A DNA stretch of 58,950 bases. Source: an uncultured Pseudomonadales bacterium. Its GTDB lineage: Bacteria; Patescibacteriota; Microgenomatia; UBA1400. A program made the position numbers and the translations under genes. The stretch is from contig CAZPUR010000004.1 in NCBI GenBank assembly GCA_964589815.1, positions 1 through 58,950 of the forward strand. The letters run 5' to 3'. The notes under the pieces were generated by a model. The model was not told where the DNA came from. It worked only from the letters and a program-made list of their open reading frames with translations, and did not search any database. This document shows positions 10,562 to 56,997 of this stretch, piece by piece (positions within the stretch are counted from its first letter, which is position 1; each line of letters opens with the position of its first letter).

Positions 10562-10610
10562 AAATTATCATCCAGAGGATGATCGTCCCCTGGATGAGGA
10601 ATTAGAAATT
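10556..10610. repeat. 33-bp palindromic insert flanked by 11-bp direct repeats
   Basis: aattagaaatt (10556-10566) atcatccagaggatgatcgtcccctggatgagg aattagaaatt (10600-10610). Confidence 0.8.
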
Positions 10611-11752
10611 TGCGAATAGCAATAGATTGCCGTTTTTGGGGCACAAAACATACGGGTTTGGGTAGATATACTGAGAACCTTGTTTTAAATCTGCTCGAAA
10701 TAGACAAGGTTAATCGTTATTTTCTTTTTGTTTCTGAGAACAATGAAACAATGAAACAATGTAACAAGGCAACAGTTCTCCCACTTAATACCCCGCACTA
10801 TTCTTTAAAAGAACAAATTATCATTCCGAAAATTTTAAAAGAAATCAATCCCGACTTAGTCCACTTTCCTCATTTTAATGTGCCGATTCTTAATAATTTT
10901 CCTTATTTGATTACCATTCATGATTTAATCAAACACTATTCCAAAGGCAAAGAAACAACCACCAGAAACTCTTGGATTTATTTATTAAAATATTGGGGAT
11001 ATAAAACTGTTTTTACTCAAGCAGTAGGAAAAGCTAAAAAAATCATTGTTCCTTCAAAGTTCGTCAAAAGAGGATTATTGAAAAATTATCTCTTGGCTGA
11101 AGATAAAATCGAAGTTATTTATGAGGGAGTAGATAATAAGCTCAAAGCTCAAAGCTCAAAGCTCAAAGCTAAATCTCAAAAATCAAAACTTTTGAATAAA
11201 TATAAAATTAGAAGGCCCTATCTTTTATATGTTGGGAATGTTTATCCTCATAAAAACATCAGACGTTTAATTCTTGCAGTCAAAAAAATTAATCAAACAT
11301 TAATCATTGTTTGTTCCCGGGATGTTTTTTACCAGCGTTTGCAGCAGGTGGTTAAAGAATTTAAAGCAGAAAAATTTGTTAAATTAACAGGTTATGTTAC
11401 TGATAAAGAGCTAAACGTTTTATATGCTCAAGCTAAGGCTTTTATTAATCCTTCGCTAATGGAAGGCTTTGGTTTACCTGGCCTGGAAGCGATGCAGGCC
11501 GGTTGTCCGGTCGTTTGCAGCCAGATTCCTACTTTTAAAGAAGTTTATGACCAAGCGGTAGTTTATTTTAATCCCAAAAACATTGATGATATAGCAGAGA
11601 AAATCTTAAAAGTGATTAATTTTTCAGATAAAGAGAGGAAAGAGTTGATTAAAAAGGGAAAAAATCAGGCAAGCAAATACTCTTGGCAAAAATGCGCCCA
11701 AGAAACCCTTCAGCTATATCAGTCAATGGACAAATCAATAATCGGTAGATAA
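10610..11752 (+). CDS. GT4 glycosyltransferase, TTG start
   Basis: RIAIDCRF, GLGRY, ITIHDL, YPHKN, PSLMEGFGLPGLEA. Confidence 0.9.
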   Translation: MRIAIDCRFWGTKHTGLGRYTENLVLNLLEIDKVNRYFLFVSENNETMKQCNKATVLPLNTPHYSLKEQIIIPKILKEINPDLVHFPHFNVPILNNFPYLITIHDLIKHYSKGKETTTRNSWIYLLKYWGYKTVFTQAVGKAKKIIVPSKFVKRGLLKNYLLAEDKIEVIYEGVDNKLKAQSSKLKAKSQKSKLLNKYKIRRPYLLYVGNVYPHKNIRRLILAVKKINQTLIIVCSRDVFYQRLQQVVKEFKAEKFVKLTGYVTDKELNVLYAQAKAFINPSLMEGFGLPGLEAMQAGCPVVCSQIPTFKEVYDQAVVYFNPKNIDDIAEKILKVINFSDKERKELIKKGKNQASKYSWQKCAQETLQLYQSMDKSIIGR

Positions 11753-11759
11753 ATTATTT

Positions 11760-12884
11760 ATGAAGATTGCTTTAGTTTACGATCGGGTTAATAAGTTTGG
11801 CGGGGCAGAAAGGGTTTTGTTGGCCCTTCACCAAATCTGGCCTCAGGCCCCGCTTTATACTTCTGTTTATAATCCTGCTGGGGCAACTTGGGCCAAGGAT
11901 TTTGAAGTGATTCCTTCATTTGTTAATAAACTGCCTTTGGCTAAAAGTAATCACGAAATTTATCCTTGGTTAATGCCTTTAGCTTTTGAGTCCTTTGATT
12001 TTTCTGAATTTGATGTGGTGATTTCCGTCACGTCAGCTGAAGCAAAAGGAATTATTACCAGGCCAGAAACCCTTCATTTATGCTATTGTTTAACGCCTAC
12101 CCGCTATTTATGGAGCGGCTACCGTCATTATTATAAAAATCCCCGTTATGGTCTTTTAAATCCTTTGGCCAAAGTTTTGCTTCGGCCCATGCTTTTAAAG
12201 CTTAAACAATGGGACAAAATCGCTAGCCAGAGACCGGATTATTATTTGGCTATTTCTAAAACAGTTAAGAAAAGAATAAAAAAATATTATCAAAGAGACT
12301 CAAAGGTTATTTATCCAGCAGTTGATGTAAATAAATTTAAATCAACTAGACGCTATTTACTAGACGCTGGACGCTATTTTCTTGTTGTTTCTCGGCTGGT
12401 TTCTTATAAGCGGGTGGATGTTATTGTAGATGCCTTTAATCAACTAGGGTTGCCTTTAAAGATAATTGGCGATGGAAGTGAAAGAAAATATTTAGGAGCC
12501 AAAGCTAAGAAAAATATAGAATTTTTAGGACAGGAGTTGACGGACAATCAATTGGTAGGTTATTATCAAGAATGTTTAAGTTTGGTTTTTGCGGGTGAAG
12601 AAGACCTTGGTTTGGTTTCTTTAGAAGCTCAGGCTTGCGGTAAACCAGTGATTGCTTATAAAATGGGAGGAGTGGGAGAAACAGTTATTGATGGTAAAAC
12701 CGGCATCCTGTTTTATCCCCAAACCAGTCAAGCCTTGATTAAGGCAGTGAAAAATTTTAAAGCCGAGAATTTTGAAACCAAAGAGATTCGCCAAAATGCT
12801 TTAAAATATAGTGAGAAAATTTTTTGTCAAAAATTTAAAGCCAAAGTGGAGGATTTATGGCTGAAACACCAAAAATTGATATAA
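11760..12884 (+). CDS. GT4 glycosyltransferase
   Basis: GGAERV, CLTPTRYLW, VSRLVSYKRVD, EEDLGLVSLEAQACGKPVIA. Confidence 0.9.
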   Translation: MKIALVYDRVNKFGGAERVLLALHQIWPQAPLYTSVYNPAGATWAKDFEVIPSFVNKLPLAKSNHEIYPWLMPLAFESFDFSEFDVVISVTSAEAKGIITRPETLHLCYCLTPTRYLWSGYRHYYKNPRYGLLNPLAKVLLRPMLLKLKQWDKIASQRPDYYLAISKTVKKRIKKYYQRDSKVIYPAVDVNKFKSTRRYLLDAGRYFLVVSRLVSYKRVDVIVDAFNQLGLPLKIIGDGSERKYLGAKAKKNIEFLGQELTDNQLVGYYQECLSLVFAGEEDLGLVSLEAQACGKPVIAYKMGGVGETVIDGKTGILFYPQTSQALIKAVKNFKAENFETKEIRQNALKYSEKIFCQKFKAKVEDLWLKHQKLI

Positions 12885-13966
12885 AAGCAGTGGTTTTTGC
12901 GGGTGGAGTGGGGACAAGGATGTGGCCCTTGAGCCGGACACAGAGCCCAAAACAATTTGAGAAAATGGTAGACAACAAATCTACGGTTCAATTAACAGTT
13001 GCTCGCCTTCGTCCCGAGGTCGACTGGGGCAATATTTACCTTTCCACGGGCGAAGTTTATGCCCCTTTGGTAAAAAAACAGCTTCCCCGGATTCCCAAGA
13101 AGAATATTGTGGGTGAGCCAAAAATGAGAGATGTGGCCGGAGCCGTTGGTCTGATGGCGGCTATTATTGCTAAAAAGGACCCGGATGGTCCTTTGGCAAT
13201 TTTATGGAGCGACCACATTATGAAGCGAGTAGGTCAGTTTAAAAAAGCTTTAAGAGTAGGAAGCGAATATATTAGAAAGAATCCTGATAAGATTTTATTT
13301 CTAGGGCACAAACCTCGTTACGCTAATCAGAATTTAGGCTGGGTGCAGATGGGGAAGGAACTTAAAAAACTTAATGGCTTCAGAATTTTTGAGTTCAAAA
13401 GCTGGAAGTATAGGCCGGACTTTGAATTAGTCCAGAAATTTTTTAAAGATAAAAAATATAGCTGGAATCCAGGCTACTTTATCTCTACGCCTAAATTTAT
13501 TCTCAATCAGTACCAAAGATTTATGCCTCAGATGTATAAAAAGATAATGGAATTACAGCAAGCCTACGGAAGATTTAGTTATAAAAGAAAATTGAAGAAA
13601 ATTTATCCTACTTTTGAAAAGATCTCTTTTGATGACGCCATTTTAGAAAGGTTAGAACCGGAAAAAGCCGTGGTGATGTCCGTTGATTTTGGCTGGAGCG
13701 ATTTAGGGACTTGGTTGGCACTAAAAGAAGCTTTACAGAAATCCAATAAAGATAATGTGGCTAAAGGGAAAGTATTTTTATATCAATCAGAAGACAGTTT
13801 AGTTTACAACTGTTCTGACCAACTGCTGACCGCCATCGACCTTAAAGGCATGGTTGTTGTTAATACGGAAGATGTTCTTTTAGTTTGTCCTAAAGAATCA
13901 ATGAAAAATATTAAGAAAGTAGTTAATCAATTTAAAGAAAATAAAAATTACAAAAAGTTCACTTAA
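12857..13966 (+). CDS. manC: Mannose-1-phosphate guanylyltransferase
   Basis: AGGVGTRMWPLSR..PKQF, SDH, WNPGYF, ISFDDAILE, FGWSDLGTW. Confidence 0.85.
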   Translation: MAETPKIDIKAVVFAGGVGTRMWPLSRTQSPKQFEKMVDNKSTVQLTVARLRPEVDWGNIYLSTGEVYAPLVKKQLPRIPKKNIVGEPKMRDVAGAVGLMAAIIAKKDPDGPLAILWSDHIMKRVGQFKKALRVGSEYIRKNPDKILFLGHKPRYANQNLGWVQMGKELKKLNGFRIFEFKSWKYRPDFELVQKFFKDKKYSWNPGYFISTPKFILNQYQRFMPQMYKKIMELQQAYGRFSYKRKLKKIYPTFEKISFDDAILERLEPEKAVVMSVDFGWSDLGTWLALKEALQKSNKDNVAKGKVFLYQSEDSLVYNCSDQLLTAIDLKGMVVVNTEDVLLVCPKESMKNIKKVVNQFKENKNYKKFT

Positions 13967-13974
13967 AAAAAATA

Positions 13975-14592
13975 ATGGGTTATCAAGAAATTAAAAGGGT
14001 ATTAGACCTTTCATTAGCCCTATTTTTAGCTATCCTGTTTTTTCCTATCTGGATAATTGTGCCCCTGGTGGTTTTAATTGACTCCGGTCGGCCTATTTTT
14101 TACCGTCACCGTCGGGTAGGTAAAGGCGGGAAAGAATTTTGGTTGTATAAATTTAGGAGTATGGTGGTTAATGCGGATAAGATGTTGCTTTGGAATAAAA
14201 GACTTTTAGCCGAATTCAAAAACAGTGATTGGAAGCTTGAGAATGACCCCCGGATAACCAAATTAGGCAGGATTTTACGTAATTTAACCATCGATGAGTT
14301 TCCTCAGTTGTTCAATGTTTTTAAGGGAGAGATGAGCATGATTGGGCCGAGAGCTTATGTTAAGAATGAGTTAAAAGAACAAGGCAAAAAATATCCCTCG
14401 ACTAAAAAATATATTGAAACCATTCTTGCCGTCAGGCCGGGAATCACCGGTGTTTGGCAAACCTCAGGCAGAAACGAAATCCCCTTTACTCAAAGAGCAA
14501 AAATGGACTATGATTATGTCAGGAAAATGTCCTTTTGGGAGGATTTAAAAATTATTTTGAAAACACCCAAGGCCATGATTTCTAAATGGTAG
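13975..14592 (+). CDS. Initiating sugar-phosphate transferase (Bac_transf, WbaP/WcaJ-like)
   Basis: IKRVLD, YKFRSM, DPRITKLG, IDEFPQLFNV..GEMSMIGPR, RPGITGVWQTSGR. Confidence 0.92.
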   Translation: MGYQEIKRVLDLSLALFLAILFFPIWIIVPLVVLIDSGRPIFYRHRRVGKGGKEFWLYKFRSMVVNADKMLLWNKRLLAEFKNSDWKLENDPRITKLGRILRNLTIDEFPQLFNVFKGEMSMIGPRAYVKNELKEQGKKYPSTKKYIETILAVRPGITGVWQTSGRNEIPFTQRAKMDYDYVRKMSFWEDLKIILKTPKAMISKW

Positions 14593-16550: not shown

Positions 16551-16553
16551 TCA

Positions 16554-16658
16554 GGAAACGTCATTCCTGAAATTAATTCAGGACAGGCTCCGAATCCTGA
16601 TATTCATCAGGACAAGCCTTATTGAAGGAAACGTCATCCTGAACTTGTTTCAGGATCT
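16554..16658. repeat. Cluster of three REP-like hairpins
   Basis: tcctgaa-attaa-ttcagga; tcctga-tattca-tcagga; gtcatcctgaacttgtttcaggatct; ggaaacgtcat repeated at 16554 and 16627. Confidence 0.85.
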
Positions 16659-16947
16659 ATATAATCTCCCCATATAAGTCTTTAAATCGAGGATTTTTTA
16701 ATTTAATAAGATTTAATTTCCATTGGCGATGCCAATTTTTTAATTGTTTTTCTCTTCGTATAGCTTCTTCAATTGATTCAAAACATTCATAATAGAGTAA
16801 CTTTGTTAGTTTATATTTTTGGCTAAAACCTTTAACTAAATGTTGTTTATGCTGGTAAACTCTTTTGATTAAATTAGAAGTTACTCCAATGTATATTGTA
16901 GGCCTATTATTACCAATAAAGTAAACATATCCTTTGTCTTTTGACAT
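16657..16947 (-). CDS. Small GIY-YIG nuclease family protein
   Basis: GYVYFI..IYIGVT..KRVYQH..YYE..AIRREKQLKNWHRQWK. Confidence 0.93.
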   Translation of the reverse strand: MSKDKGYVYFIGNNRPTIYIGVTSNLIKRVYQHKQHLVKGFSQKYKLTKLLYYECFESIEEAIRREKQLKNWHRQWKLNLIKLKNPRFKDLYGEII

Positions 16948-16968
16948 TAATTAAGTATACTTAATTAA
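16947..16968. promoter_or_regulatory. Perfect 22-bp palindrome at the GIY-YIG start codon
   Basis: ttaattaagtatacttaattaa, with tatact on both strands. Confidence 0.55.
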
Positions 16969-16997
16969 AATGTTGAAATAAATTAGATGCTGAAATG

Positions 16998-17023
16998 AGA
17001 TTCTGAAATAAATTCAGAATGAC
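16998..17023 (-). repeat. REP-like hairpin, inverted relative to the 16633 copy
   Basis: agattctgaaataaattcagaatgac; reverse complement gtcattctgaatttatttcagaatct matches 16633-16658. Confidence 0.85.
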
Positions 17024-17029
17024 GAGGAT

Positions 17030-17575
17030 ATGAAAACCTACAAAACAGAAGCTTTCGTGATTAAAAGAATCAATTTTGGTGAGGCGGATAAAATTCTAAC
17101 AGTTTATTCTAAGCATTATGGCAAGATTCGCTGTTTGGCTAAAGGAGTGAGAAAATTAACTTCCCGTAAAGCCGGTGCCCTAGATCTTTTTAACCAAGTA
17201 GTTATTTTTGTCGCCAAAGGCAAAAATTTGGACTTAATCACCGAGGCTAGGATTTTGAGATCTTTTAGCAGCTTTAAAAAAGACCTGAAAAAAGTGGCTT
17301 TGGCTTATAAATTTGTGGAATTAGTCGACCGCTTAAATGCTGAAAATCAAGCCAATCATTCAGTCTACCAACTTTTACTTGATTCTTTAAGAAAACTGAC
17401 TCGTTCCCAGGTGAACTTAAGTCAACTCTCTTTAGATTTTAAAAAAGATCTTTTGCAGTGGACAGGTTTTGGCTTGCCTGATGAGATTAGCAACCGGAGT
17501 TTAAACGAAGCTTTAGAAAAAATTATCGAAAAAAAGATTAACTCTCATTCTCTCTTGAAAAAGGTGATGGATTGA
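17030..17575 (+). CDS. recO: DNA repair protein RecO (short form)
   Basis: FGEADKILTVYSKHYGKI..AKGVRK..SRK..LDLFN. Confidence 0.9.
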   Translation: MKTYKTEAFVIKRINFGEADKILTVYSKHYGKIRCLAKGVRKLTSRKAGALDLFNQVVIFVAKGKNLDLITEARILRSFSSFKKDLKKVALAYKFVELVDRLNAENQANHSVYQLLLDSLRKLTRSQVNLSQLSLDFKKDLLQWTGFGLPDEISNRSLNEALEKIIEKKINSHSLLKKVMD

Positions 17576-17591
17576 AGGTAGAATAAAATTT

Positions 17592-18878: not shown

Positions 18879-18911
18879 TTTAGAACTTTTATTTTTTCAA
18901 GGGTTATTTTT

Positions 18912-19733: not shown

Positions 19734-19788
19734 GAGAACAGGAATAACTTTGTCTATATTTTGTATCAGATATGGTAAAATAATTAAT

Positions 19789-20073
19789 ATGGACGAAAAA
19801 AAAGAGATAACTCCCGAAAATTGTCGTTTTCGGGTAACCACTAAACCTCGGGCAGAAGGCACCCTCGGGAACGAAAATATATGTGCTCCAAGCTTTGGCA
19901 GCCAAGGAGGTTTTAGTAGTACTTTAGTCTGTTTGAAGCAAGGAGATGGACAATACGCCCATCTTTGCCCCCTCGAGCAAGCTTTAAAAGCCGACGAGTT
20001 TTTTAGAGAACGGAAATTAGCAGAGTTAGATAAAAGTTTAGCTAGGTTAAAAGATTTAGGTTATATTGATTAG
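19789..20073 (+). CDS. Small Cys-containing hypothetical protein
   Basis: ATG 19789 preferred over upstream TTG; no family recognised. Confidence 0.5.
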   Translation: MDEKKEITPENCRFRVTTKPRAEGTLGNENICAPSFGSQGGFSSTLVCLKQGDGQYAHLCPLEQALKADEFFRERKLAELDKSLARLKDLGYID

Positions 20074-20081
20074 TAGAATTT

Positions 20082-20170
20082 ATGCCTCCACAGCAATTTC
20101 CTGAGCCCACGGTCGGCGCCTTGATTTAGAGCCTTATACCAGGAAAGTAATCAAAGAATATAAAAAATAA
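20082..20170 (+). pseudogene. Internally deleted NUDIX hydrolase remnant
   Basis: MPPQQFPEPTVGALI* fused out of frame to LEPYTRKVIKEYKK*; resembles NUDIX termini with the core missing. Confidence 0.45.
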
Positions 20171-20273: not shown

Positions 20274-20298
20274 TGCTTAATCATCCAGAGGACGATAA

Positions 20299-20736
20299 AT
20301 GTTAATTGGTAATTATCAGGGTAAATTAGATTTGGAAAAAGGAAGAACCGCTCTTCCCAAGAAGTTTCGTTCTTTATTGGGCAAAAAAGTAATTATTACC
20401 GCCGGATATGAGAAATCTTTAATGATTATTAGCCTTGACTCTTGGGAGAAAGTCGTCGGTCAGATTGTTAATAAGCCTTTTATTTCTGGTTCTGCCCGAG
20501 AAACTGACCGGTTTTTGCTTGGTTCTGCTTTTGAGGTAGAACTTGATAATCAGGGAAGAATGATTATTCCTGTTTCTTTAAGAAGTTATGCCGCTTTGTC
20601 CGCTGATATTGTTTTTGTTGGCATCGGCAATCGAGTTGAAGTTTGGGATCAGACAGGCTGGGAAAAACACCAGCAATATTTAGATGAAAATATCAGCCAG
20701 ATAAGCGAGAAACTTGATGAAACAGAGAACAAATAG
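20299..20736 (+). CDS. mraZ: Transcriptional regulator MraZ
   Basis: GRTALPKKFR, ELDNQGRMIIP, GIGNRVEVWD. Confidence 0.95.
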   Translation: MLIGNYQGKLDLEKGRTALPKKFRSLLGKKVIITAGYEKSLMIISLDSWEKVVGQIVNKPFISGSARETDRFLLGSAFEVELDNQGRMIIPVSLRSYAALSADIVFVGIGNRVEVWDQTGWEKHQQYLDENISQISEKLDETENK

Positions 20737-26440: not shown

Positions 26441-27197
26441 GAAGTACCTTAAGTTTAAGAATCTCAGTAAACAAAAAAAATTAGTTCATGGGATTTTTGA
26501 TAAAAATTTTGGCAATTTAAGTCTGAAATATGGGAGCAAGAAAGAAGTAGAAAAGAATAAAAAAAATGTAGCTAAAATTTTAAACATTAATGGACAAAAA
26601 ATCTTTTCTCTTAACCAAATTCATAGCAGTAAAGTTAAAATAATTAAAAAGGATAAAAATTTCTTAAAAGAAGAAAAAGCAGATGCTTTAGTTACCAATC
26701 AGAGGGACATATTTTTAATGATTAAAACCGCCGATTGTTTTCCGGTTTTGATGTTTGATCCCAGGCAAGAAGTAATGGCCGCAATTCACGTTGGTTGGCG
26801 CGGAGCGATCGAAAAAATCTTTTTAAACGTCTTACTGAAAATGATAACCAATTTTAATTGCCGGCCTCAAGACATATTAGTAGCCATCGGTCCGGGCATG
26901 GGCCCCTGTTGTTTTAAACATAGACATTTAATTCAGGAAAAACTACCTGACTGGCAAGAATTCATTAAGGTAGATAAGAATGATTGGAGAACCTTAAACC
27001 TTAGGAAATTTATTGAAGATAAATTAATTGAGGCGGGGATTAGGAAAAACAATATCGAAACAATGGATATCTGTAATAGTTGCAATGCGACCCCGAACAA
27101 TAAATATTCGGGGCAAAGGTTTTTTTCCCATTTACGTAGTTTAAATACGGGTGAGCCAGAAGGCCGTTTTGCCACCATTATTGGTTTAAATGATTGA
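26433..27197 (+). CDS. pgeF: Peptidoglycan editing factor PgeF/YfiH family
   Basis: QIHS, ADALVT, TADCFPV, HVGWRG, IGPG. Confidence 0.88.
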   Translation: MFKKYLKFKNLSKQKKLVHGIFDKNFGNLSLKYGSKKEVEKNKKNVAKILNINGQKIFSLNQIHSSKVKIIKKDKNFLKEEKADALVTNQRDIFLMIKTADCFPVLMFDPRQEVMAAIHVGWRGAIEKIFLNVLLKMITNFNCRPQDILVAIGPGMGPCCFKHRHLIQEKLPDWQEFIKVDKNDWRTLNLRKFIEDKLIEAGIRKNNIETMDICNSCNATPNNKYSGQRFFSHLRSLNTGEPEGRFATIIGLND

Positions 27198-28641
27198 TCT
27201 AAAGAAAATTAAAAAAATTCATTTTACCGGCATTAAAGGTGTGGGTTTAACCGCCTTGGCCTTGGTGGCTAAAGATATGGGTTTTAAGATTTCTGGTAGT
27301 GATGTGGCCGAATCTTTTGTGACTGATGAAGCATTGAAGAAAGCAGGCATTAAGACTCAAATTGGTTTTAATGAGAAAAGAATTAAGGATGCAGATTTGG
27401 TGATTTTTTCTGCCGGTCATGGTGGATCGGAGAATATTGAAGTTCAATCAGCTAGAAAACAGGCAATTCCGATTTTATCTCATGCTCAGGCTTTGGCTTT
27501 GCTGGTAAAGTCAAAAAAAGCCATTTGTGTGGCTGGGGTGGGAGGGAAAACCACGACTTCTTCGATGATTGCTACCGTTTTCCAAGTGGCTGGGGTTCAT
27601 CCCAGTTATGCCATTGGCGTGGGTGGGATTAGACCTTTAGGCCTACCGGCAAAATTTGACAAAAAAGGTAAATATTTTGTGGCCGAGGCGGATGAATATT
27701 TTTCTCCACCCCCAGACTCTAAACCTAAATTTTGGTATCAAAATCCTTTTGTAGCCGTAATTACCAATCTAGAATATGATCATCCTGATGTTTATAAAAA
27801 CCTGGAACATACTTTAAAAGTTTTTGCTAAATTTATTGAAAGGACGCCAAAAGAAGGTTTGGTTCTAGTTTGTATTGATAATCCCAATACAGAAAAGCTA
27901 ATTCAATTTTGGCCAAAGACCAATCGTCCTTTGGACGAAATTAAAGTACCAATTAGTACCTATGGTTTTTCCAGAAAAGCTGATTGGCAAATTACTTTAA
28001 TTGATAAAAGTGAAGAAAAAATCAGTTTTAACTTAAAGTATAAGAATAAAGTTTTCAAGAATATCGAGTTAAATATTCCAGGAGAGTTTAATGTTAGAAA
28101 TGCGGCGGCCGCTTTTGCTGTCGGCCGCTTTTGCGGCATTAGCCCCAGAAAAATCAGGGAAGGGTTAAAGGCCTTTAAGGGTACCCAAAGAAGATTTGAG
28201 CTTATTAGGGAAATCAAGGGGATTAAACTTTATGATGATTATGCTCATCATCCAGTCCAAATAAAAGCAACTCTAAAAGGAGCCAGAGACTGGTTTGGTA
28301 AGAAAAGAATTATCGTTGTTTTCCAACCCCACACTTATAGCCGCACTAAAGCCTTATTAAAAGAATTCAGTTTGGCTTTTAATGAGGTTGACTTAGTAAT
28401 TATTACTGATATTTATGCTTCGGCTCGAGAAAAAGATAATCCTACCATTTCAGGAAGGCTGTTAGCTAAAAAAATAAAAGAACATCAGGCCAATGTGGTT
28501 TACCAGGGTGGGGAGAAAGAAGTGGCCAGTTATTTAGGAAAAATAGCTAAAAAAGGAGATGTAATTTTTACTTTAGGAGCCGGAGATATATTTAAGTGGC
28601 ACAACTCAATTGCAAAAGCAATTGAGAGAAATCAGAAATAA
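27190..28641 (+). CDS. murC: UDP-N-acetylmuramate--L-alanine ligase
   Basis: HFTGIKGVGL, GVGGKTTT, EADEY, YDHPD, RRFE, DDYAHHP, FQPHTYSRT. Confidence 0.96.
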   Translation: MIDLKKIKKIHFTGIKGVGLTALALVAKDMGFKISGSDVAESFVTDEALKKAGIKTQIGFNEKRIKDADLVIFSAGHGGSENIEVQSARKQAIPILSHAQALALLVKSKKAICVAGVGGKTTTSSMIATVFQVAGVHPSYAIGVGGIRPLGLPAKFDKKGKYFVAEADEYFSPPPDSKPKFWYQNPFVAVITNLEYDHPDVYKNLEHTLKVFAKFIERTPKEGLVLVCIDNPNTEKLIQFWPKTNRPLDEIKVPISTYGFSRKADWQITLIDKSEEKISFNLKYKNKVFKNIELNIPGEFNVRNAAAAFAVGRFCGISPRKIREGLKAFKGTQRRFELIREIKGIKLYDDYAHHPVQIKATLKGARDWFGKKRIIVVFQPHTYSRTKALLKEFSLAFNEVDLVIITDIYASAREKDNPTISGRLLAKKIKEHQANVVYQGGEKEVASYLGKIAKKGDVIFTLGAGDIFKWHNSIAKAIERNQK

Positions 28642-40633: not shown

Positions 40634-41452
40634 TCATTTTGATGGTTTTAATGAAGGATAAAAGGTTTTAATTCTTTTTAATTCTTTCAGGTAAAAGTAA
40701 TAAGCACCTTCTCCTAAATAATTATCTCTCATTAGCTCAAAAGGGAGTTGAGGATCCTTTTTAAGAATGGAAAGATAAATTAATATTAATTGGATCTTTT
40801 TTAGTTTACCTTTTTCAACTTGATCAATGAACTTTCTATACTCACTATTTATTTTTTTAATCTCATAAACTTCCCCTAAGACATCTCTCATATCTTTACC
40901 ACCAATATGACTTCCTTCTCTTAATTCTGAAACTAAAACTAGCCCTATTGTTCCTGTTTGTTTAACAAAATCAGCAATTAATCTTTTGGGATTGTATGGA
41001 GTAATCCAGACACTTTGCTGAAGCATGCCACAACCTAATTTTTTAAGATAATTTCTTAAATAATCTCGAAATCTTTTCCTCTCTTCCGGAATATCATAGG
41101 TGATTAAATAAAGAATTCCGTCCCAAAGCCTCTTTTGTTCATATACTGGTAAGTTCCTTTTTAATCTTTTTAAGCCAAATCGAGTGATTTTAAAGTAATC
41201 TTCTTTCCTCTGAAGATAACCCTTAGTAGTAAGGTAGTAAATTGTTCTCTTCAAATTTTTTCTATGGACAATTTTTGTAAGATGAACAGCCTCGCTAATA
41301 ACGCCAGAAAGATCCTTATTACTTTTATAAGTTCCTATTAAACTCAGTTTAAAAAAGACAGTAAATAAGCATATATCAATTAAAGTGTCAAAAAGTCCAA
41401 GGGTTAACTTATTGAGTCTTTTCTTATAATTTTTTTTATGTTTTCTTGCCAT
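40634..41452 (-). CDS. PaaX-family regulator (wHTH + Cas2-like fold + PaaX C-terminal)
   Basis: WDG..YDIPEERKRFRD..LG..LQQSVWITP; DPQLPFEL. Confidence 0.82.
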   Translation of the reverse strand: MARKHKKNYKKRLNKLTLGLFDTLIDICLFTVFFKLSLIGTYKSNKDLSGVISEAVHLTKIVHRKNLKRTIYYLTTKGYLQRKEDYFKITRFGLKRLKRNLPVYEQKRLWDGILYLITYDIPEERKRFRDYLRNYLKKLGCGMLQQSVWITPYNPKRLIADFVKQTGTIGLVLVSELREGSHIGGKDMRDVLGEVYEIKKINSEYRKFIDQVEKGKLKKIQLILIYLSILKKDPQLPFELMRDNYLGEGAYYFYLKELKRIKTFYPSLKPSK

Positions 41453-43003: not shown

Positions 43004-44387
43004 AGCTTGGGAAGATAAAAAAATATTGATTCTCGGTTTTGGCCGTGAAGGTTTAAGCAGTTTGGAGTTTTTACGCCAAAAATTTCATGATAAAGAAATT
43101 GGTGTAGCTGATCAATTAAAATTTAGAGATTTAAACTATAAACTTAAAGAAAAAATTAAAAAATTTTCTCCCCTGAAATTGCATTTAGGAAAAGACTATT
43201 TAAAAGCAATTGATAAATATAACATTATTATTAGATCGCCAGGTTTGTCTATGGCTTCGCCAGCGCTAATTAGAGCCAAAGAGAAAGGTAAAATAATTAG
43301 CTCGCAGACAAAAATCTTCTTTGATCTTTGCCCGGGAATAATTATTGGAGTGACAGGGACAAAGGGCAAGAGCACAACATCTTCTTTAATCTTTGCAATT
43401 TTAAAGGCAGCCAGGAAAAAGGTTAAGTTAATTGGTAATATTGGTAAACCAGCTCTAACTTTTTTAAACGGAAATGGTAAAGATACTATCTTTATTTTTG
43501 AGCTTTCTTCTCATCAGTTAGTTGATTTAAAAAAAAGTCCTCACACTGCAGTTTTATTAAACATTGTCCCCGAGCATTTGGATTATTATAAAAATTTTAA
43601 AGAATATCTGAATGCTAAAAAGAGCTTTATCCTTTATCAAGACAAAGATGATTATTTAATTTACAATGCTTCTTTTCCTGTTACTAGAAAATTATCAAAA
43701 ATAAGCAAAGCTAAAAAAATTCCTTTTTATATTGATAGACAAAAATGCCCCGGTTGTTTTCCAGATGGAGGTAAGCTTGTTTATTGTTATTCTCAATCAG
43801 GCAAGGAAGAAATAATCAAAATAAAAGATATTCCCTTAAGAGGAAAATTTAATTTACAAAACGTAATGCCGGCGATTATCGTGGCTAAAATATTTAATCT
43901 TGATAATCAAACCATTGCTAGAGCGATTAAAAAATTTAAACCTTTACCTCATCGTTTAGAATTAGTCGGTATTTTTAAAGGCATTACTTTTTACAATGAC
44001 TCTTTAGCTACCAACCCTAATGCTACCATAGCCGCCATTGATACCTTTAAAAATAAAATTGGGACGATTTTTTTAGGTGGCCATGAGAGAAATTTAGACT
44101 TTAGCGCTCTGGCCAAACAAATTTTGCTTTATAAAATCAAAAATATTATTCTTTTTCCGGTCAATGGAAAAAGAATTTGGCAAGAGATTCAAAAAAGAGC
44201 AGGAACATTTTCTCCTCAACACTTTTTTGCTAAAAACATGAAAGAAGCAGTTAAATTAGCTTATCAACATACGCCTCAAGGGAAAATTTGTTTACTTTCT
44301 TGTGCGGCTCCAAGTTTTGGTTTGTTTAAGGACTATAAGGATAGGGGAGACCAGTTTAAAAAGTGGGTAAAGAAGTTAAGATCCTGA
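42996..44387 (+). CDS. murD: MurD-family glutamate ligase (probably MurD2)
   Basis: GFGREG, RSPG, GVTGTKGKSTT, ELSSHQL, EHLDY, HRLE, NDSLATN. Confidence 0.9.
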   Translation: MIKAWEDKKILILGFGREGLSSLEFLRQKFHDKEIGVADQLKFRDLNYKLKEKIKKFSPLKLHLGKDYLKAIDKYNIIIRSPGLSMASPALIRAKEKGKIISSQTKIFFDLCPGIIIGVTGTKGKSTTSSLIFAILKAARKKVKLIGNIGKPALTFLNGNGKDTIFIFELSSHQLVDLKKSPHTAVLLNIVPEHLDYYKNFKEYLNAKKSFILYQDKDDYLIYNASFPVTRKLSKISKAKKIPFYIDRQKCPGCFPDGGKLVYCYSQSGKEEIIKIKDIPLRGKFNLQNVMPAIIVAKIFNLDNQTIARAIKKFKPLPHRLELVGIFKGITFYNDSLATNPNATIAAIDTFKNKIGTIFLGGHERNLDFSALAKQILLYKIKNIILFPVNGKRIWQEIQKRAGTFSPQHFFAKNMKEAVKLAYQHTPQGKICLLSCAAPSFGLFKDYKDRGDQFKKWVKKLRS

Positions 44388-44404
44388 AATAAATTCAGGA
44401 TGAC
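44379..44404 (-). repeat. REP-like hairpin containing the murD stop codon
   Basis: agatcctgaaataaattcaggatgac, near-identical to 16998-17023. Confidence 0.85.
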
Positions 44405-47462: not shown

Positions 47463-47465
47463 TTT

Positions 47466-48749: not shown

Positions 48750-48802
48750 TCTTGATTTAATCGGGATCATAAATTTCTCCTGCCCAGAAAAAGGAGCCAG
48801 AT

Positions 48803-49963: not shown

Positions 49964-50140
49964 ATCAAGCTCCAAATATCAAGCACCAAATTTCAAATAA
50001 TTTTCAAATTCCAATTTCCAAACAATTTATAATTTTGAATTTGGAGCTTTGAATTCCTGCCGGCCGGCAGGTTTAGAATTTTTAATTTTGAAAATTGAGA
50101 TTTATTTGGGATTTGTAATTTGGGATTTGTGGTTTTGCTG
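49964..50140. repeat. Intergenic periodic inverted-repeat element with nested 16-bp palindrome
   Basis: caagcaccaaat/caaatt left arm, atttggg right arm; cctgccggccggcagg at 50056-50071. Confidence 0.8.
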
Positions 50141-50163
50141 GGAAGATTGATATAATAAACTTC

Positions 50164-53085: not shown

Positions 53086-53087
53086 TT

Positions 53088-54158
53088 ATGTTCAGAAATC
53101 TTGACTGCTGGTTTATCCTTCCAGTGCTGGTTATTTTCAGTCTGGGGGCTTTGACTCTTTTCAGTATTGATAGGAGTTTTTTCCAAAACCAGCTTTTATT
53201 TTTTAGCATCGGGGTTTTAGTTTTTTTACTTTTTTCTCTTATTGATTACCAGGTTTTTGAAAAACTTTATTTTCATTTATATATTCTGGCAGTTTTTTTA
53301 CTTTTGCTGACCTTTATTTTAGGCAGTTTAACCCGTGGCTCAATCCGCTGGATTAGAATAGGAAATTTAAGTTTACAACCTTCAGAACTAGTCAAACCCC
53401 TTTTACTTTTGAGCTTTTCCGGCCTAGCTTTAAAATTGGATTTTAAAAAGATTAAAGATTTAATTATCTTTTTAGGCCTTCTTTTTTTACCGGTTTTTTT
53501 AATTTTCAAACAACCAGACTTAGGCAGCGCTTTAGTTGTTTTTGTCATCGGCTTGGCGATTATTTTAAGTAAAGGGATGAGATTAAGATATCTTATTTTA
53601 GGCTTATTAGTTTTTTTAGCCAGCCTGCCTTTAGGTTGGCGGGTTTTAAAACCATACCAACAAGAAAGGGCCTTAAGCTTTCTTTATCCAGGTTTTGATC
53701 CTTTAGGCAGCGGTTACAACCTAATTCAGGCCAAAATCGCTATTGGTTCAGGTCAATTTTTAGGCAAAGGCTTGGGCAGCGGCACCCAAAGCCAGCTTAG
53801 ATTTCTACCGGAGAGACACTCTGATTTTATTTTTGCCTGCCTGGCAGAAGAATGGGGTTTTTTAGGCAGCAGTTTATTAATTTTTGCTTTTTATATTTTA
53901 ATTTTGAAAATTTATCTTTTAGGCAGGGAGAGCGAAACTTTAACGGGAAGCTTAATCTGTGTTGGAGGCGCCAGCCTGCTTTTTTTTCAATCTTTTATTA
54001 ATATAGGGATGAATTTAGGCTTAATGCCGATTACTGGAATTACTCTGCCTTTAGTTTCTTATGGTGGCAGTTCTTTAATCTCTACTTTTGTTCTATTAGC
54101 CTTAATTCGATCAGTGGCCAGGAATAGGCAAAAAGAAAAATCAATTGAAATAAGATAA
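53088..54158 (+). CDS. rodA: SEDS protein RodA
   Basis: QPSELVK, QPDLGS, GYNLIQAKIAIGSG, FLPERHSDFIF, LPLVSYGGSS. Confidence 0.9.
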   Translation: MFRNLDCWFILPVLVIFSLGALTLFSIDRSFFQNQLLFFSIGVLVFLLFSLIDYQVFEKLYFHLYILAVFLLLLTFILGSLTRGSIRWIRIGNLSLQPSELVKPLLLLSFSGLALKLDFKKIKDLIIFLGLLFLPVFLIFKQPDLGSALVVFVIGLAIILSKGMRLRYLILGLLVFLASLPLGWRVLKPYQQERALSFLYPGFDPLGSGYNLIQAKIAIGSGQFLGKGLGSGTQSQLRFLPERHSDFIFACLAEEWGFLGSSLLIFAFYILILKIYLLGRESETLTGSLICVGGASLLFFQSFINIGMNLGLMPITGITLPLVSYGGSSLISTFVLLALIRSVARNRQKEKSIEIR

Positions 54159-54180
54159 ACATTAAGTTAAAATACAGTCT

Positions 54181-54507
54181 ATGGTTAAAATAATAAAAAC
54201 AGCCGTAGTTAATATTGCTGGCAAACAACACCTAGTAGCCGAAGGCGAAGTCATTACCACGGAAAAGATTGAAGGGAAAAAAGGGGATAAGATTAATTTT
54301 GATCAGGTTTTAATGGTAAAAGACAATAAATTAAGCCTCGGTACTCCCCTGGTCAAACAAGCTCGGGTAAAGGGAGAAGTTGTCGAGCAGTTCAAAGATA
54401 AGAAAATCCGGGTGGCCACTTATAAAGCTAAATCCCGTTATCGTCGGGTTAAAGGCCATCGTCAGCAAAAAACTAAAGTAAAGATTTTAAAAATTACTTC
54501 TTCTTAA
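54181..54507 (+). CDS. rplU: 50S ribosomal protein L21
   Basis: GKQHLVAEG, YKAKSRYRRVKGHRQ. Confidence 0.95.
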   Translation: MVKIIKTAVVNIAGKQHLVAEGEVITTEKIEGKKGDKINFDQVLMVKDNKLSLGTPLVKQARVKGEVVEQFKDKKIRVATYKAKSRYRRVKGHRQQKTKVKILKITSS

Positions 54508-54606
54508 TCTGTTCCTAGTCAGTTTAGACTGAGCCCGCATTTTGCGGGAGAAGTGTGAAAATAAATAGTTGACTTTTGTGAAAACTTATGGTTACATAAG
54601 GTTGTT

Positions 54607-54852
54607 ATGGCGAAAAAGAAAACCGGCGGGAGCACGGTTCAACACAAAGGCAGGGTCGGTAAGCGTCTGGGCATCAAAATTTACGGCGGCCAAAACATTA
54701 AAACCGGTCAGATTATTGTCCGGCAAAGGGGTAGCAAATTTCATGCCGGCCAGGGCGTAGGGATGGGTAGAGACCACACCCTTTTTGCCTTAAAGACAGG
54801 TAGAGTTAGTTTTTCTAGTTTGCGAGGTAAAAAAGTAGTCTCTATTATTTGA
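54607..54852 (+). CDS. rpmA: 50S ribosomal protein L27
   Basis: [25 protein letters not shown]. Confidence 0.96.
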
Positions 54853-54874
54853 TTTTAAATAAAAGGAGTCAGTT

Positions 54875-55747
54875 ATGGATCAAATGGGTCAAAAAAATAT
54901 CGTTGATTTAGACGTTGAACAGCTTCAAGCCAATCCCCTCCAGCCCCGAGGAGTAATTACTTCGGAATCAATTGCTGACTTAGTGGAATCTATTAAACAA
55001 CACGGTGTTTTAGAGCCCTTAGTGGTGGCCCATACGCCGGCCGGTTATCAGATTGTGGTGGGTGAAAGGCGTTGGCGGGCGTCCAAAATTGCCGGCCTTA
55101 AAGATGTTCCCTGCATTGTCAAAGAGACCAGTCCTCAGGGGATGTTGGAGATGGCTATTGTGGAAAACGTCCAGAGAGAGGATTTGAATCCTATTGATCG
55201 AGCTAAGGCCTTTGAACGTTTAGTCGAGGAATTTATGCTTTCCAAGGCAGAGATTGCCAAGAGAATTGGCAAAAGCGCCCCTTATATTTCCAACACCTTA
55301 AAACTGCTTCAACTGCCAGATGCGGTCAAAGATGGTCTGCTTTCAGGTTTGGTTACTGAAGGTCATGCCCGGGCCCTTCAGGGTATTCACGATATGCGTT
55401 TAATGATTGAAGCTTATAAAATGGTTTTGAAAGAATCAGCTTCAGTCAGAAGAACAGAAGAAATAGCCCGAAGAATGAAGCTGGCTTCCGGTCAGCCCAC
55501 AGTTAAATTAGGTGATAAGAGTGAAGCCCGATTAAATAAATTTATTGTTGATGAAAAAGTAGACCAATATGAGGATGAAATGCGCGGGGCTTTAGGTAAA
55601 AAGGTAAAAGTGAGATTGAGAAGGAGTCTAAGGGAAACTAAATTATACATTGGTTTGGTGGGAACGCCCGAAGAAACAGATGAGCAATTAAGAAAACTTC
55701 ACCAGGCGATCTTAGGAATCAGTCCGGAAGCAGAGGGCGGCCAGTAA
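54875..55747 (+). CDS. parB: ParB/Spo0J family protein
   Basis: NPLQPR, GERRWRA, ENVQREDLNP, HTH, GHARAL. Confidence 0.92.
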   Translation: MDQMGQKNIVDLDVEQLQANPLQPRGVITSESIADLVESIKQHGVLEPLVVAHTPAGYQIVVGERRWRASKIAGLKDVPCIVKETSPQGMLEMAIVENVQREDLNPIDRAKAFERLVEEFMLSKAEIAKRIGKSAPYISNTLKLLQLPDAVKDGLLSGLVTEGHARALQGIHDMRLMIEAYKMVLKESASVRRTEEIARRMKLASGQPTVKLGDKSEARLNKFIVDEKVDQYEDEMRGALGKKVKVRLRRSLRETKLYIGLVGTPEETDEQLRKLHQAILGISPEAEGGQ

Positions 55748-56262
55748 CGCAGCCAAGCCCTGCCCACAATATCATCTTTAGAAATGTAACCCCATTCTCT
55801 TGAGTCGCTGGAATGGGAGCGATTGTCTCCAGCCATAAAATATTGTTCTTCAGGCACCACTATTTCTCCACCCTCAGGTAAAAATTGACCGCCCTGAGTG
55901 TAAACATCTTCAGCTAAATAAGCCGATTCATCTAAAAACTTATCATCAATAAAAAATCTTCCTTGTTTTAAACTGACGCTTTCGTTTGGCAGACCAATAA
56001 TTCTTTTAATATAATCATAGCTTTGATTAACCGGAGCTTTAAAGATAATGACATCGCCTCTTTCAGGTTCATGGATACGATAGGTAATTTTATTGGTCAG
56101 CAGATATTCGCCGTTTTCAAAATTGGGCTGCATGGAGTTGCCTTTAACCTGATGGGGCTGGAAAAGAAAGAGGTAGATAATGACGAAAATAACCAGGGCG
56201 GTGACAATGGTTTCAATAAAGTCCAAAATAAAAGCGCCGATGATTCTTAGTATCCGAAACAT
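55699..56262 (-). CDS. lepB: Signal peptidase I
   Basis: GNSMQP, YIKRIIG, GDNRSHSSDSR. Confidence 0.95.
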   Translation of the reverse strand: MFRILRIIGAFILDFIETIVTALVIFVIIYLFLFQPHQVKGNSMQPNFENGEYLLTNKITYRIHEPERGDVIIFKAPVNQSYDYIKRIIGLPNESVSLKQGRFFIDDKFLDESAYLAEDVYTQGGQFLPEGGEIVVPEEQYFMAGDNRSHSSDSREWGYISKDDIVGRAWLRYWPPSASGLIPKIAW

Positions 56263-56329
56263 AATATTTCATTATAAAGGGAAATTAGATTGTGACGCAA
56301 GAGCAATTTTGGTAAAATCATATCTAAAA

Positions 56330-56381
56330 GGGTCCATAGCTTGAGCCAGAGGCTCATCGTCCTCTGGACGGCAGTGGTAGA
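56330..56381 (+). pseudogene. tRNA-Val 5' fragment with palindrome inserted in the D-arm
   Basis: gggtcca-tagct-[tgagccagaggctcatcgtcctctggacgg]-cagtggtaga, ending 3 nt before the GIY-YIG ATG. Confidence 0.7.
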
Positions 56382-56384
56382 TAG

Positions 56385-56636
56385 ATGTTTTACTATGTTT
56401 ATTTACTAATAAGCCTTAAAAACGGGAAAACCTATGTTGGTTTTACGAGCAAACAGCCCCAACAACGTCTGGTAGAACACAACATGGGCGTTAATAAATG
56501 GACAAAGCAAAACGGTCCTTTTAAATTGATATATTGGGAAAAGTTTTTTTGTAAAAAAGATGCCATCATGAGAAAAAAATTTTTTAAAAGTGGACAAGGA
56601 AAGAAATTAAAACAGATAATAGTTAAATATTATTAG
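56385..56636 (+). CDS. Small GIY-YIG nuclease family protein (catalytic Glu apparently replaced by Lys)
   Basis: YYVYLL..TYVGFT..RLVEHN..YWE..AIMRKKFFKSG. Confidence 0.88.
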   Translation: MFYYVYLLISLKNGKTYVGFTSKQPQQRLVEHNMGVNKWTKQNGPFKLIYWEKFFCKKDAIMRKKFFKSGQGKKLKQIIVKYY

Positions 56637-56641
56637 ATTTT

Positions 56642-56713
56642 GGGCTCGTAGCTCAGTGGTAGAGCGTTCCGTTCACATCGGAGAGGTCATAGGTTCAATC
56701 CCTATCGAGCCCA
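56642..56713 (+). tRNA. tRNA-Val(CAC)
   Basis: Acceptor gggctcg/cgagccc, D-arm gctc/gagc, anticodon ttccg-ttCACat-cggag, T-arm atagg-ttcaatc-cctat; CCA not encoded. Confidence 0.95.
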
Positions 56714-56783
56714 CTATTTTAATAATCTAGTTGTTCCCAAAAAATAGATTGTAGTAGAAGGGCAATGTGAAATCGTTCTACCA

Positions 56784-56997
56784 GGGTCCATAATAGCTTG
56801 AGCCAGAGGCTCACCGTCCTCTGGACGGCAGTGGTAGAGCGTTCGGTTCACATCCGAAAGGCCCCCTGGTTCAAATCCAGGCACGGTCACTAGCTTTGGC
56901 AGGCGGGTCCGAAAGGTCAGAGGTTCGATACCTCTCGAGTCCACAAGTCCAGTCTGGCGGGTCGTAGGGGTTGATGGTTCAAGTCCATCTGGACCCA
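56784..56997 (+). other. Composite tRNA-Val relic: interrupted 5' half plus three stacked 3' halves
   Basis: gggtcca, D-arm with palindrome, ttcgg-ttCACat-ccgaa, then T-arms at 56865, 56919 and 56973; final tggaccc-a pairs with the 5' gggtcca. Confidence 0.75.

Follow-up and report, generated by a model that had tools for sequence, protein, structure and literature searches.

A Family of 30-Nucleotide Mobile Double-Hairpin DNA Elements in Patescibacteria, Linked to Small GIY-YIG Nuclease Genes at tRNA Loci

Introduction

Short, palindromic and non-autonomous mobile DNA is already known as a kind, and the best reading of the element considered here is that it belongs to this kind, close to the REP sequences (repetitive palindromes of extragenic DNA) and the MITEs (miniature transposable elements with inverted repeats), and partnered with a cassette of a GIY-YIG nuclease gene and tRNA sequences. 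The element, a double hairpin of 30 nucleotides (nt), was found in a 58,950-nt stretch of DNA, hereafter the window (contig CAZPUR010000004.1 of assembly GCA_964589815.1, positions 1 to 58,950), deposited as an uncultured Pseudomonadales bacterium of GTDB lineage Patescibacteriota, Microgenomatia, UBA1400. It is a family of 30-nt mobile DNA insertions in Patescibacteria, or candidate phyla radiation (CPR), especially in Microgenomates, and is apparently undescribed before. The literature searched gave no account of such a double-hairpin element, nor of a partnership between GIY-YIG genes and hairpin repeats, in CPR; the coverage of this search was incomplete and an earlier description is possible.

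The Rickettsia palindromic elements (RPEs), reportedly described by Ogata et al. in 2000, are said to measure about 100–150 nt, to occur in Rickettsia only and to have no known partner enzyme. Like the element studied here, they are palindromic repeats that lie in frame in protein genes and also in structural RNA genes, adding tolerated peptides; the present element differs by its 30-nt length (10 codons), its double-hairpin plan and its linked nuclease gene. The mitochondrial double-hairpin elements (DHEs) of Allomyces were reportedly described by Paquin et al. in 2000. They share with the present element two adjacent stem-loops (26–79 nt in DHEs), compensatory stem changes and variable loops, as well as insertion into spacers, structural RNA genes and one another (as “twins”, with nested counterparts here in loci L138, L028, L120 and L154), and they too lie near mobile endonuclease open reading frames (ORFs). 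DHEs are however organellar, the resemblance is one of plan only with no sequence relationship expected, and neither a GIY-YIG/tRNA cassette nor in-frame spread in protein genes is reported for them. DHEs and related hairpin elements of fungal and sponge mitochondrial DNA are mentioned in PMC2800124 and PMC10085805.

In Pseudomonas and Enterobacteria, REPs and REPINs go together with RAYT transposases (PMC3116915, PMC3337134, PMC3733652). Those systems also consist of short (20–40 nt), non-autonomous hairpin repeats spread over the genome, whose stem is kept while the sequence drifts, and there too the partner nuclease gene is itself flanked by repeats. The differences are nevertheless substantial. 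The partner here is a GIY-YIG protein (PF01541) and not a Y1 HUH transposase; no transposase family was found among the 20 window ORFs scanned. The element ends in TC...GA and has no GTAG tag, CGTC being present only in the commonest stem and often replaced. ORFs contain 34 of 89 copies, so that the element is not limited to extragenic DNA, and its GIY-YIG partner resides in a tRNA-linked cassette that is present or absent, whereas RAYTs are mostly vertically inherited. From MITEs it is set apart by the lack of a fixed-length target-site duplication, and no parent insertion sequence was found. The IS200/IS605 family likewise uses hairpins as recognised structures and inserts without target-site duplication; in contrast, no TnpA/TnpB gene was seen beside the elements, no conserved tetra- or pentanucleotide stands 5' of the insertion point, and the element is just 30 nt long and fully palindromic. 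We know of no smaller non-autonomous mobile element.

The Seg proteins of phage T4 are free-standing GIY-YIG homing endonucleases, SegB for example being located in a tRNA cluster. GIY-YIG ORFs have also been described in non-intron insertions of CPR rRNA genes (PMC11270868). The cassette resembles such free-standing homing genes in that its gene lies at or within a conserved structural RNA gene, is present or absent among close relatives and is not housed in a self-splicing intron. It differs from them by encoding a bare 83-residue catalytic domain of the UPF0213/SLX1 branch, and by the duplicated tRNA piece, the double hairpin and the many solo 30-nt copies that accompany it.

The Element in the Window and in Other Genomes

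A preliminary description of the window had pointed to a repeated element made of two tandem hairpins with three-nucleotide loops. This is borne out by the sequence, by shuffled controls and by a covariance model, and the four full copies and the half copy then cited are all present, the first of them starting at 10568 and not at 10567:

10568–10597, + strand: solo double-hairpin element, 30 nt, TCATCC-AGA-GGATGA TCGTCC-CCT-GGATGA, covariance model 45.6 bits
20280–20296, strand arbitrary (palindromic): half copy ATCATCCAGAGGACGAT, one 15-nt hairpin TCATCC-AGA-GGACGA with one A.C mismatch
27909–27938, + strand: solo element in murC (27190–28641), TTGGCC-AAA-GACCAA TCGTCC-TTT-GGACGA, 54.2 bits
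56342–56371 (48.0 bits) and 56799–56828, + strand: two near-identical elements in pseudo-tRNAs, TGAGCC-AGA-GGCTCA (T/C)CGTCC-TCT-GGACGG

The copy at 10568 lies in the spacer between a GT2 gene (9647–10561) and a GT4/GT1 gene (10610–11752), and is bracketed by an 11-nt direct repeat, AATTAGAAATT, at 10556–10566 and 10600–10610. The sequence of this junction is unchanged in three other contigs with an identical upstream protein, which show no strain polymorphism of this copy. The half copy, formerly assigned to the minus strand although its hairpin is palindromic, overlaps the likely ribosome-binding site of mraZ and ends 2 nt before the ATG at 20299; its score of 15–17 bits (E about 0.01–0.03) is weak alone. 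The murC copy has a C.A mismatch in hairpin 1 on the + strand.

Dinucleotide shuffles of the window (37% G+C) provided the chance level. Tandem triloop hairpins in general are frequent in this DNA, with 61 instances versus about 50 in the shuffles. Hairpin pairs with stems of at least 6 base pairs (bp) and complementary 7-mers around the loops number five, against 0.03 expected, and the pattern CCARAGNNNNAYCGTCCYYTGGA has four matches, against 0.08 expected. A covariance model trained only on copies from outside the window retrieves the four full copies (45.6–54.2 bits) and the half copy, with no other match. A chance origin of the copies is ruled out by the shuffles together with the taxon-restricted distribution of the family.

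This distribution was obtained by scanning one genome per prokaryotic species with the pattern CCARAGNNNNAYCGTCCYYTGGA (34 bits), which leaves the outer stem pairs of hairpin 1 free. Among the matches listed are more than 116 loci, mostly in metagenome-assembled genomes (MAGs) of Microgenomates and other Patescibacteria; the host groups are Daviesbacteria, Gottesmanbacteria, Levybacteria, Woesebacteria, Roizmanbacteria and other Patescibacteria MAGs, with a few scattered unrelated genomes. Both hairpins form in 85 of the 121 matches listed in spite of the unconstrained outer pairs of hairpin 1. The other 36 do not fold, in agreement with the about 70 random matches that our own estimate from the information content of the pattern predicts. 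L002, L005, L010, L012 and about 20 further loci labelled “uncultured Gammaproteobacteria” carry typical copies and have 34–48% G+C, like the CPR-labelled loci; the labels of these MAGs may be wrong. A phage origin was also considered, and a scan of viral contigs gave two matches, neither of which folds, as expected by chance.

The 85 folding copies among the matches listed have a common anatomy, TCNNCC-ANA-GGNNGA followed by TCNNCC-TNT-GGNNGA, which gives two 6-bp hairpins with 3-nt loops. The consensus reads TC(A/G)GCC-A(A/G)A-GGC(T/C)GA-TCGTCC-T(T/C)T-GGACGA, usually with GATC at the centre, and dyad symmetry is seen at three levels. A pyrimidine precedes the element at position −2 in 76 of the 85 copies and a purine follows at +2 in 80; AA commonly comes after it. 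Diverged copies found by the covariance model vary in hairpin 2, where TCATCC/GGATGG, TCCTCC/GGAGGA and TCGGCC/GGCCGA were observed.

Covariation and the Question of Refolding

The preliminary description held that stems change while the structure is kept, and proposed that copies be collected, a covariance model built and covariation tested. Both hairpin stems covary strongly. One pair of hairpin 1 is AU in 38 copies, GC in 36 and CG in 6 in the genomic set of 85, with similar exchanges at two other pairs, and 67 cells are changed on both sides versus 14.5 in shuffles, the observed value being reached in 0 of 500 shuffles. A second set of 51 distinct copies was taken by position beside GIY-YIG genes, without any sequence pattern. 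Changes on both sides affect 8 of its 12 pairs (116 such cells versus 29 in shuffles), and 98.9% of its stem cells are paired versus 18–46% when partners are slid. The family thus consists of a short palindromic stem-loop in many copies, 85 genomic and 51 cassette-linked distinct ones, with 98–99% of stem cells paired. It is the formation of a hairpin or cruciform that is preserved and not the sequence, the NN positions of the stems varying widely with pairing kept.

The loops behave differently from what was first proposed, namely that they change together with the stems. In both sets only their outer bases are fixed, as A.A in the first hairpin and T.T in the second, while the middle bases pair at chance (26 of 52 in a 52-copy list, where independent columns predict 0.495). 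This result bears on the bistable element of the preliminary description, understood as a conserved switch made of RNA or single-stranded DNA, in which the two hairpins would refold as one long hairpin and loops and stems would co-evolve. The alternative fold is thermodynamically reachable: it is the predicted minimum free energy structure of the 10568 copy, and in the two tRNA-fragment copies it is about 2.5–5 kcal/mol less stable than the double hairpin. The conserved outer A.A and T.T with the closing CC/GG moreover make a helix of 6 of 7 bp nearly always available. However, the 7-bp alternative helix CCANAGG/CCTNTGG has a single variable pair, and this pair fails to form in 26 of the 85 genomic copies and 26 of the 51 beside GIY-YIG genes, the chance level. 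The alternative single hairpin pairs no better than column shuffles, and the hairpin of the whole element has 80.1% of its cells paired versus 78.2% in shuffles, without covariation. Because the middle bases of the loops vary independently, the bistable reading is unsupported by the larger copy set; that the loops look complementary is a consequence of the dyad symmetry of the DNA as a whole, the element's reverse complement having the same plan. The copies also share no RNA context: they stand in either orientation to transcription and in four frames, and they occur in spacers and dead tRNA pieces as well. Refolding is therefore physically possible and bears no sign of selection, and a switch must be regarded as highly improbable.

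Two other structural candidates were rejected. Flank positions −1/+1 to −8/+8 pair no more than shuffled partners, which rules out a three-way junction closed by the flanks and a general insertion into hairpin loops. A hammerhead ribozyme, whose three helices surround an invariant core of CUGANGA and GAAA, does not fit either: the ...CUGAUCGUCC...GGACGAAA arrangement lacks G8-A9, and “CUGA” lies in a paired stem in which its U is often C (the TCGGCC/GGCCGA variant, 20 of 85 copies). Rfam gave no ribozyme match in the window at gathering thresholds, nor in 56200–57100 at E ≤ 10.

Insertion into Protein Genes and Target Sites

The element is a precise 30-nt insertion into protein genes, spacers, other hairpin repeats and the D-loop region of tRNA copies. 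The murC gene of the window provides the clearest filled and empty sites. Its product has 483 residues versus about 470–474 in relatives, and an alignment of 18 MurC sequences reveals ten extra residues, WPKTNRPLDE, which are missing from 16 of the 17 homologues, including the two closest (70–71% identity); comparison with Haemophilus MurC likewise gives a surplus of ten. In the DNA of the window the 30 nt stand between CAATT and AATTAAAG; L200 has the corresponding empty site, CAATT|AATTAAAG, in the sequence CAATTAATTAAAG. Excising 27909–27938 restores LIQLIKVP, the consensus MurC sequence. In L198, murC carries a separate element, TCGGCCAGAGGCCGATCCTCCCCTGGTGGA (TCGGCC-AGA-GGCCGA-TCCTCC-CCT-GGTGGA), 4 nt downstream of the insertion point of the window. 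The MurC proteins of L197 and L198 have a different ten-residue insert, SARGRSSPGG, in another reading frame, the L197 copy being decayed. As frames and positions differ, 4 nt apart, these must be independent insertions into one small AT-rich site.

Such in-frame copies are common, since 34 of the 89 solo copies in the genomic set (38%) lie inside long ORFs, in both orientations and in four frames. Four of the six frames of the element are open, and the two that contain stops are avoided. Recurrent peptides result from this, such as QPKADRPLDE, SAKGRSSSGR, RPKDDQPLAE and SSKGRSASGR. Both orientations, four ORF frames and clean filled and empty sites point to mobile DNA insertion and not to a conserved RNA switch. 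No target-site duplication was found at the murC or tRNA sites, nor any duplication of fixed length; direct repeats of 9–13 nt flank only a few spacer copies (the window copy at 10568, and those of L002, L015 and L110).

Association with GIY-YIG Genes at tRNA Loci

The element is tightly linked to a subfamily of stand-alone GIY-YIG genes, encoding 80–85 residues, in tRNA-locus cassettes. The 83-residue protein of the window matches PF01541 with a score of 55 bits (cut-off 22.6). Among solved structures its closest relatives are PDB entries 1ywl and 1zg2, both UPF0213 proteins, with SLX1 as a weak match, and it is a bare catalytic domain without a separate DNA-binding domain. Residues Y6, Y17, R28, E31, H32, N33 and E52 are invariant across the GIY-YIG proteins of five genomes, and 178 cluster representatives match the protein at E ≤ 1e-10. 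Many database homologues (among P0241–P0390) are annotated with 100–130 residues, the match to the 83-residue nuclease beginning at residue 20–47. A suspected reason is that gene prediction continued upstream across the element, several of whose frames are open.

The link was first read from element-centred loci (649 kb in total, as 8-kb pieces per genome), where all five GIY-YIG genes detected by a regular expression start 17–20 nt from an element. These loci share a layout of tRNA 5' fragment, element, ORF and intact tRNA (Asp, Ala, Pro). In the reverse test, the five corresponding proteins were used to fetch metagenomic loci by protein homology alone. An element stands no more than 130 nt upstream of the gene in 52 of the 69 distinct loci, and downstream only in another 6; the background in the same loci is 0.004 elements per 135 nt, so that the upstream enrichment is about 175-fold. 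The GIY-YIG link suggested in the preliminary description has thus turned out to be very strong. In most of 80 listed loci the ORF is followed by an intact tRNA, for Pro, Val, Asp, Ala, His, Gly, Lys, Arg or Asn, and the nuclease lineages largely track the tRNA type, with occasional jumps.

Comparison of each tRNA fragment with the adjacent intact tRNA indicates that the cassette element usually sits in the fragment's D-loop, where exactly 30 nt are inserted behind position 12 or 17 and nothing is duplicated. Doubled or nested copies are found in L028, L120, L138 and L154. The order is mirrored in L128, L184 and L178, where an intact tRNA and the ORF precede a full tRNA copy that carries the element; in L182 and in the window alike, the old tRNA has left its 3' part downstream of the new tRNA.

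This context leads to a first alternative, in which the element is a passenger: a mobile palindrome moved by another host or element enzyme, or by template switching during replication, with a preference for Y-N|R-R sites that are AT-rich or resemble a D-arm; the dead tRNA piece in every cassette would then be one of the few harmless landing places. The use of two D-loop positions (12/13 and 17/18) by independent insertions, fragments that hold two copies or a nested one, and units of fragment and element without a GIY-YIG ORF in L040 and L098 all fit such a passenger, as do the flank bias at −2 and +2 (76 and 80 of 85 copies) and the two independent hits of murC within 4 nt. On the other hand, the 75% occupancy of cassette fragments would imply a very high insertion rate exactly at the nuclease gene, and no alternative enzyme is seen beside the elements, the 20 scanned window ORFs being housekeeping genes. 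The window also holds another GIY-YIG gene, flanked by a different hairpin family, which suggests a general nuclease–hairpin partnership. The passenger alternative thus appears rather unlikely.

Some loci have further peculiarities. At 281–785 of L098, four or more units of 70 nt follow one another in tandem, and each consists of a 5' fragment of tRNA-Met whose D-loop contains the element; N runs make the copy number uncertain, and the array adjoins an intact tRNA-Met, without a GIY-YIG ORF. In L028/L134, downstream of the GIY-YIG ORF, another tRNA-Pro-like gene apparently harbours an intact tRNA-Pro(TGG) within its anticodon-loop region, with flanks that are complementary in part. Directly upstream of the element-linked ORF in L028/L134 there is also a GIY-YIG ORF of the typical UPF0213 type, so that this one tRNA locus holds a stack of two nuclease genes.

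The tRNA-Val Locus of the Window

The preliminary description had placed copies in murC and in tRNA D-arms. Copies do occur in murC, in a spacer and in D-arm sequence of tRNAs, but the tRNA-linked ones do not lie in working tRNAs: they are carried by the 5' fragment of a pseudo-tRNA, present in duplicate next to an intact tRNA-Val. ARAGORN and Rfam call a single tRNA in the window, and the locus is organised as follows:

56330–56381, + strand: pseudo-tRNA 5' fragment F1, GGGTCCATAGCT (tRNA positions 1–12), then the element 56342–56371 and CAGTGGTAGA (remaining D-loop/stem)
56385–56636, + strand: gene of the 83-residue stand-alone GIY-YIG nuclease, UPF0213/SLX1-like branch, starting 13 nt after the element
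56642–56714, + strand: intact tRNA-Val(CAC), the working copy and the one tRNA called, 69.7 bits; identical to the lone tRNA-Val at the syntenic site of L202
56784–56889, + strand: pseudo-tRNA F2, GGGTCCATAATAGCT, then the element 56799–56828, joined to the body of another tRNA-Val(CAC) allele, 56829–56889
56890–56997, + strand: two tandem tRNA 3' remnants (T-arm and 3' acceptor), the last ending in TGGACCC-A, complementary to GGGTCCA of F1/F2

Both tRNA-linked elements lie within a 98%-identical duplicated stretch, GGGTCCATA(ATA)GCT[element]CAGTGGTAGA, which corresponds to a tRNA's 5' part into which the element has been inserted after position 12. Homology of the leader with L201–L203 places the start of F1 at position +1 of the relatives' tRNA-Val, behind a shared promoter-like leader. 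In F2, the 3' acceptor strand CACGGTC mismatches the 5' strand, and the tRNA model gives 25.7 bits, below the 29-bit gathering score. Once the element is removed, ARAGORN calls F2 as a tRNA-Val with a mismatched acceptor stem, its body resembling the tRNA-Val of L203. An antisense Plastid-ycf2 match of Rfam at 56937–56998 corresponds to a tRNA-like 3' half. The remnants at 56890–56997 would be leftovers of earlier displaced tRNA copies, and suggest that tRNAs were replaced here several times.

The relatives L201–L203 share the FtsW-L21-L27-ParB-LepB synteny and the promoter-like leader, and each has one intact tRNA-Val(CAC) without nuclease gene or element. The window cassette is thus an insertion relative to these syntenic loci. 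Such presence and absence is what homing predicts, and is also compatible with a view that gives the double hairpin a function within a GIY-YIG homing cassette, the solo copies being by-products of break repair copied from cassettes. Its role there could be that of a plug that destroys the nuclease target in the displaced tRNA copy and so confers immunity, or that of a 5' untranslated region or processing signal of the nuclease mRNA. The position of the element, constant at 2–50 nt upstream of the ORF, agrees with a role of this sort, and so does a Shine-Dalgarno-like GAGG which, as read from the sequence, is created by the ...GA of the element and the GG of the D-loop in insertions at 17/18; GIY-YIG lineages that largely track the tRNA type fit it as well. 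The adjoining intact tRNA nevertheless keeps an unplugged D-loop, some cassettes have the element downstream only or lack it, and the solo copies in murC and in 33 other ORFs are devoid of the flanking homology needed for templated repair. A functional cassette part with solo by-products is accordingly quite unlikely.

An element in the D-loop also evokes a tRNA intron, be it bulge-helix-bulge as in archaea or group I, of which 30 nt would be spliced from interrupted but functional tRNAs. Archaeal tRNAs can have introns at non-canonical positions, and a few full-length tRNA copies do carry the element in their D-loop (L126, L128, L184). Each inspected element-bearing copy, however, adjoins an intact copy of the same tRNA type; most carriers are truncated, and the acceptor stem of the window copy is mismatched. 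There is no conserved exon–intron pairing at the two insertion positions, and the same 30 nt in ORFs are read as ten extra codons in gene predictions, including that of MurC. An intron is therefore hardly credible. No group I intron was matched by Rfam in the window at gathering thresholds, nor in 56200–57100 at E ≤ 10. The switch, intron and ribozyme readings are essentially excluded. A functional tRNA with an enlarged D-loop was rejected as well, the carriers being uncalled by ARAGORN and Rfam and each inspected one having an intact copy beside it.

Mode of Spread

The probable explanation of these data is a mobile family of 30-nt double hairpins which has the GIY-YIG/tRNA cassette as its partner and spreads through the activity of the nuclease, mobilisation by this enzyme being what we infer from genomic association. 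The GIY-YIG protein would belong to the structure-specific SLX1/UPF0213 branch, recognise the extruded hairpins or cruciform and introduce the breaks that allow cassette and solo 30-nt copies alike to spread. The autonomous form would be the cassette, persisting by bringing or regenerating an intact tRNA, and the solo copies would be its non-autonomous riders, as REPs and REPINs are to RAYT. The element-bearing tRNA pieces would be dead copies, from whose RNA the element is not removed.

Several points weigh against this explanation. The association by itself would fit “mobilised by” and “lands beside” equally well, and, with 8-kb pieces of each genome, solo copies and nuclease genes were compared at the local scale. 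GIY-YIG nucleases hydrolyse DNA and none is known to us to transpose; the 83-residue protein, moreover, has no separate DNA-binding domain. The intact tRNA that adjoins the nuclease gene has an uninterrupted D-loop, which is awkward if D-loop DNA is the cleavage target. The flanking direct repeats are inconsistent and no single classical mechanism fits. Lastly, part of the stem “covariation” may come from a few master-copy lineages and not from independent compensatory changes, and the copy sets were also selected for pairing.

A bolder proposal, to be taken as tentative, is that nuclease-driven spread amounts to a new bacterial transposition system, the GIY-YIG counterpart of RAYT-REPIN, in which an 83-residue nuclease mobilises a 30-nt double-hairpin DNA. 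Its autonomous unit of about 0.4–0.5 kb would comprise the hairpin, the nuclease gene and a replacement tRNA. This unit would invade the D-loop region of a tRNA and replace the gene thus destroyed, and the 30-nt copies would enter genes in frame.

Whatever its mechanism, the element illustrates that the tiny, gene-dense genomes of CPR/Patescibacteria tolerate a 30-nt selfish insertion within essential genes such as murC, and that a mobile cassette repeatedly rebuilds CPR tRNA loci. If the nuclease does drive the spread, a function would be provided for the abundant, uncharacterised small GIY-YIG proteins of the UPF0213/YhbQ-like type, and a nuclease class hitherto unconnected with the mobility of repeats would join the enzymes that spread them. 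It could then also help to explain oddities of CPR annotation, such as uncalled tRNA fragments and N-terminally over-extended small ORFs, as well as the ten-residue inserts (QPKADRPLDE, SAKGRSSSGR) of unrelated proteins. The element can further serve as a strain-level marker and as a compact, sequence-programmable hairpin substrate for structure-specific nucleases.

A Second GIY-YIG Gene and Other Observations

The second GIY-YIG gene of the window is of the typical type:

16657–16947, − strand: UPF0213/YhbQ-like GIY-YIG gene, PF01541 at 57.7 bits

It is flanked by copies of another hairpin repeat, ATCCTGAA-N5-TTCAGGAT(GAC), at 16565–16583, 16594–16613, 16636–16656 and 17000–17020, a fifth copy being located in the spacer at 44381–44401. 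This looks like a second pair of nuclease and hairpin repeat and hints that such pairs may be a general feature of CPR genomes, typical UPF0213 genes being very few in the fetched loci. In the Daviesbacteria loci L033, L060, L063, L065, L099 and L112, the double-hairpin element is nested in the loop of a second-family hairpin, gATCCCGCAtca[element]aGTGCGGGATgac, whose outer stem covaries; L058 contains an uninterrupted copy of that hairpin, ATTCCGAAacaaGTTCGGAATGAC. Nesting in a longer hairpin is restricted to this Daviesbacteria subfamily of elements.

Two features of the window lie apart from the hairpin repeats. A protein of 271 residues encoded at 40634–41452 on the minus strand has a PaaX central Cas2-like domain (PF20803, 58 bits) with a weak Cas2 match. 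A perfect 71-nt direct repeat, at 57867–57937 and 58053–58123 (186 nt apart), is found inside the ORF 57849–58352, which has a treble-clef zinc-finger match (PF23477).

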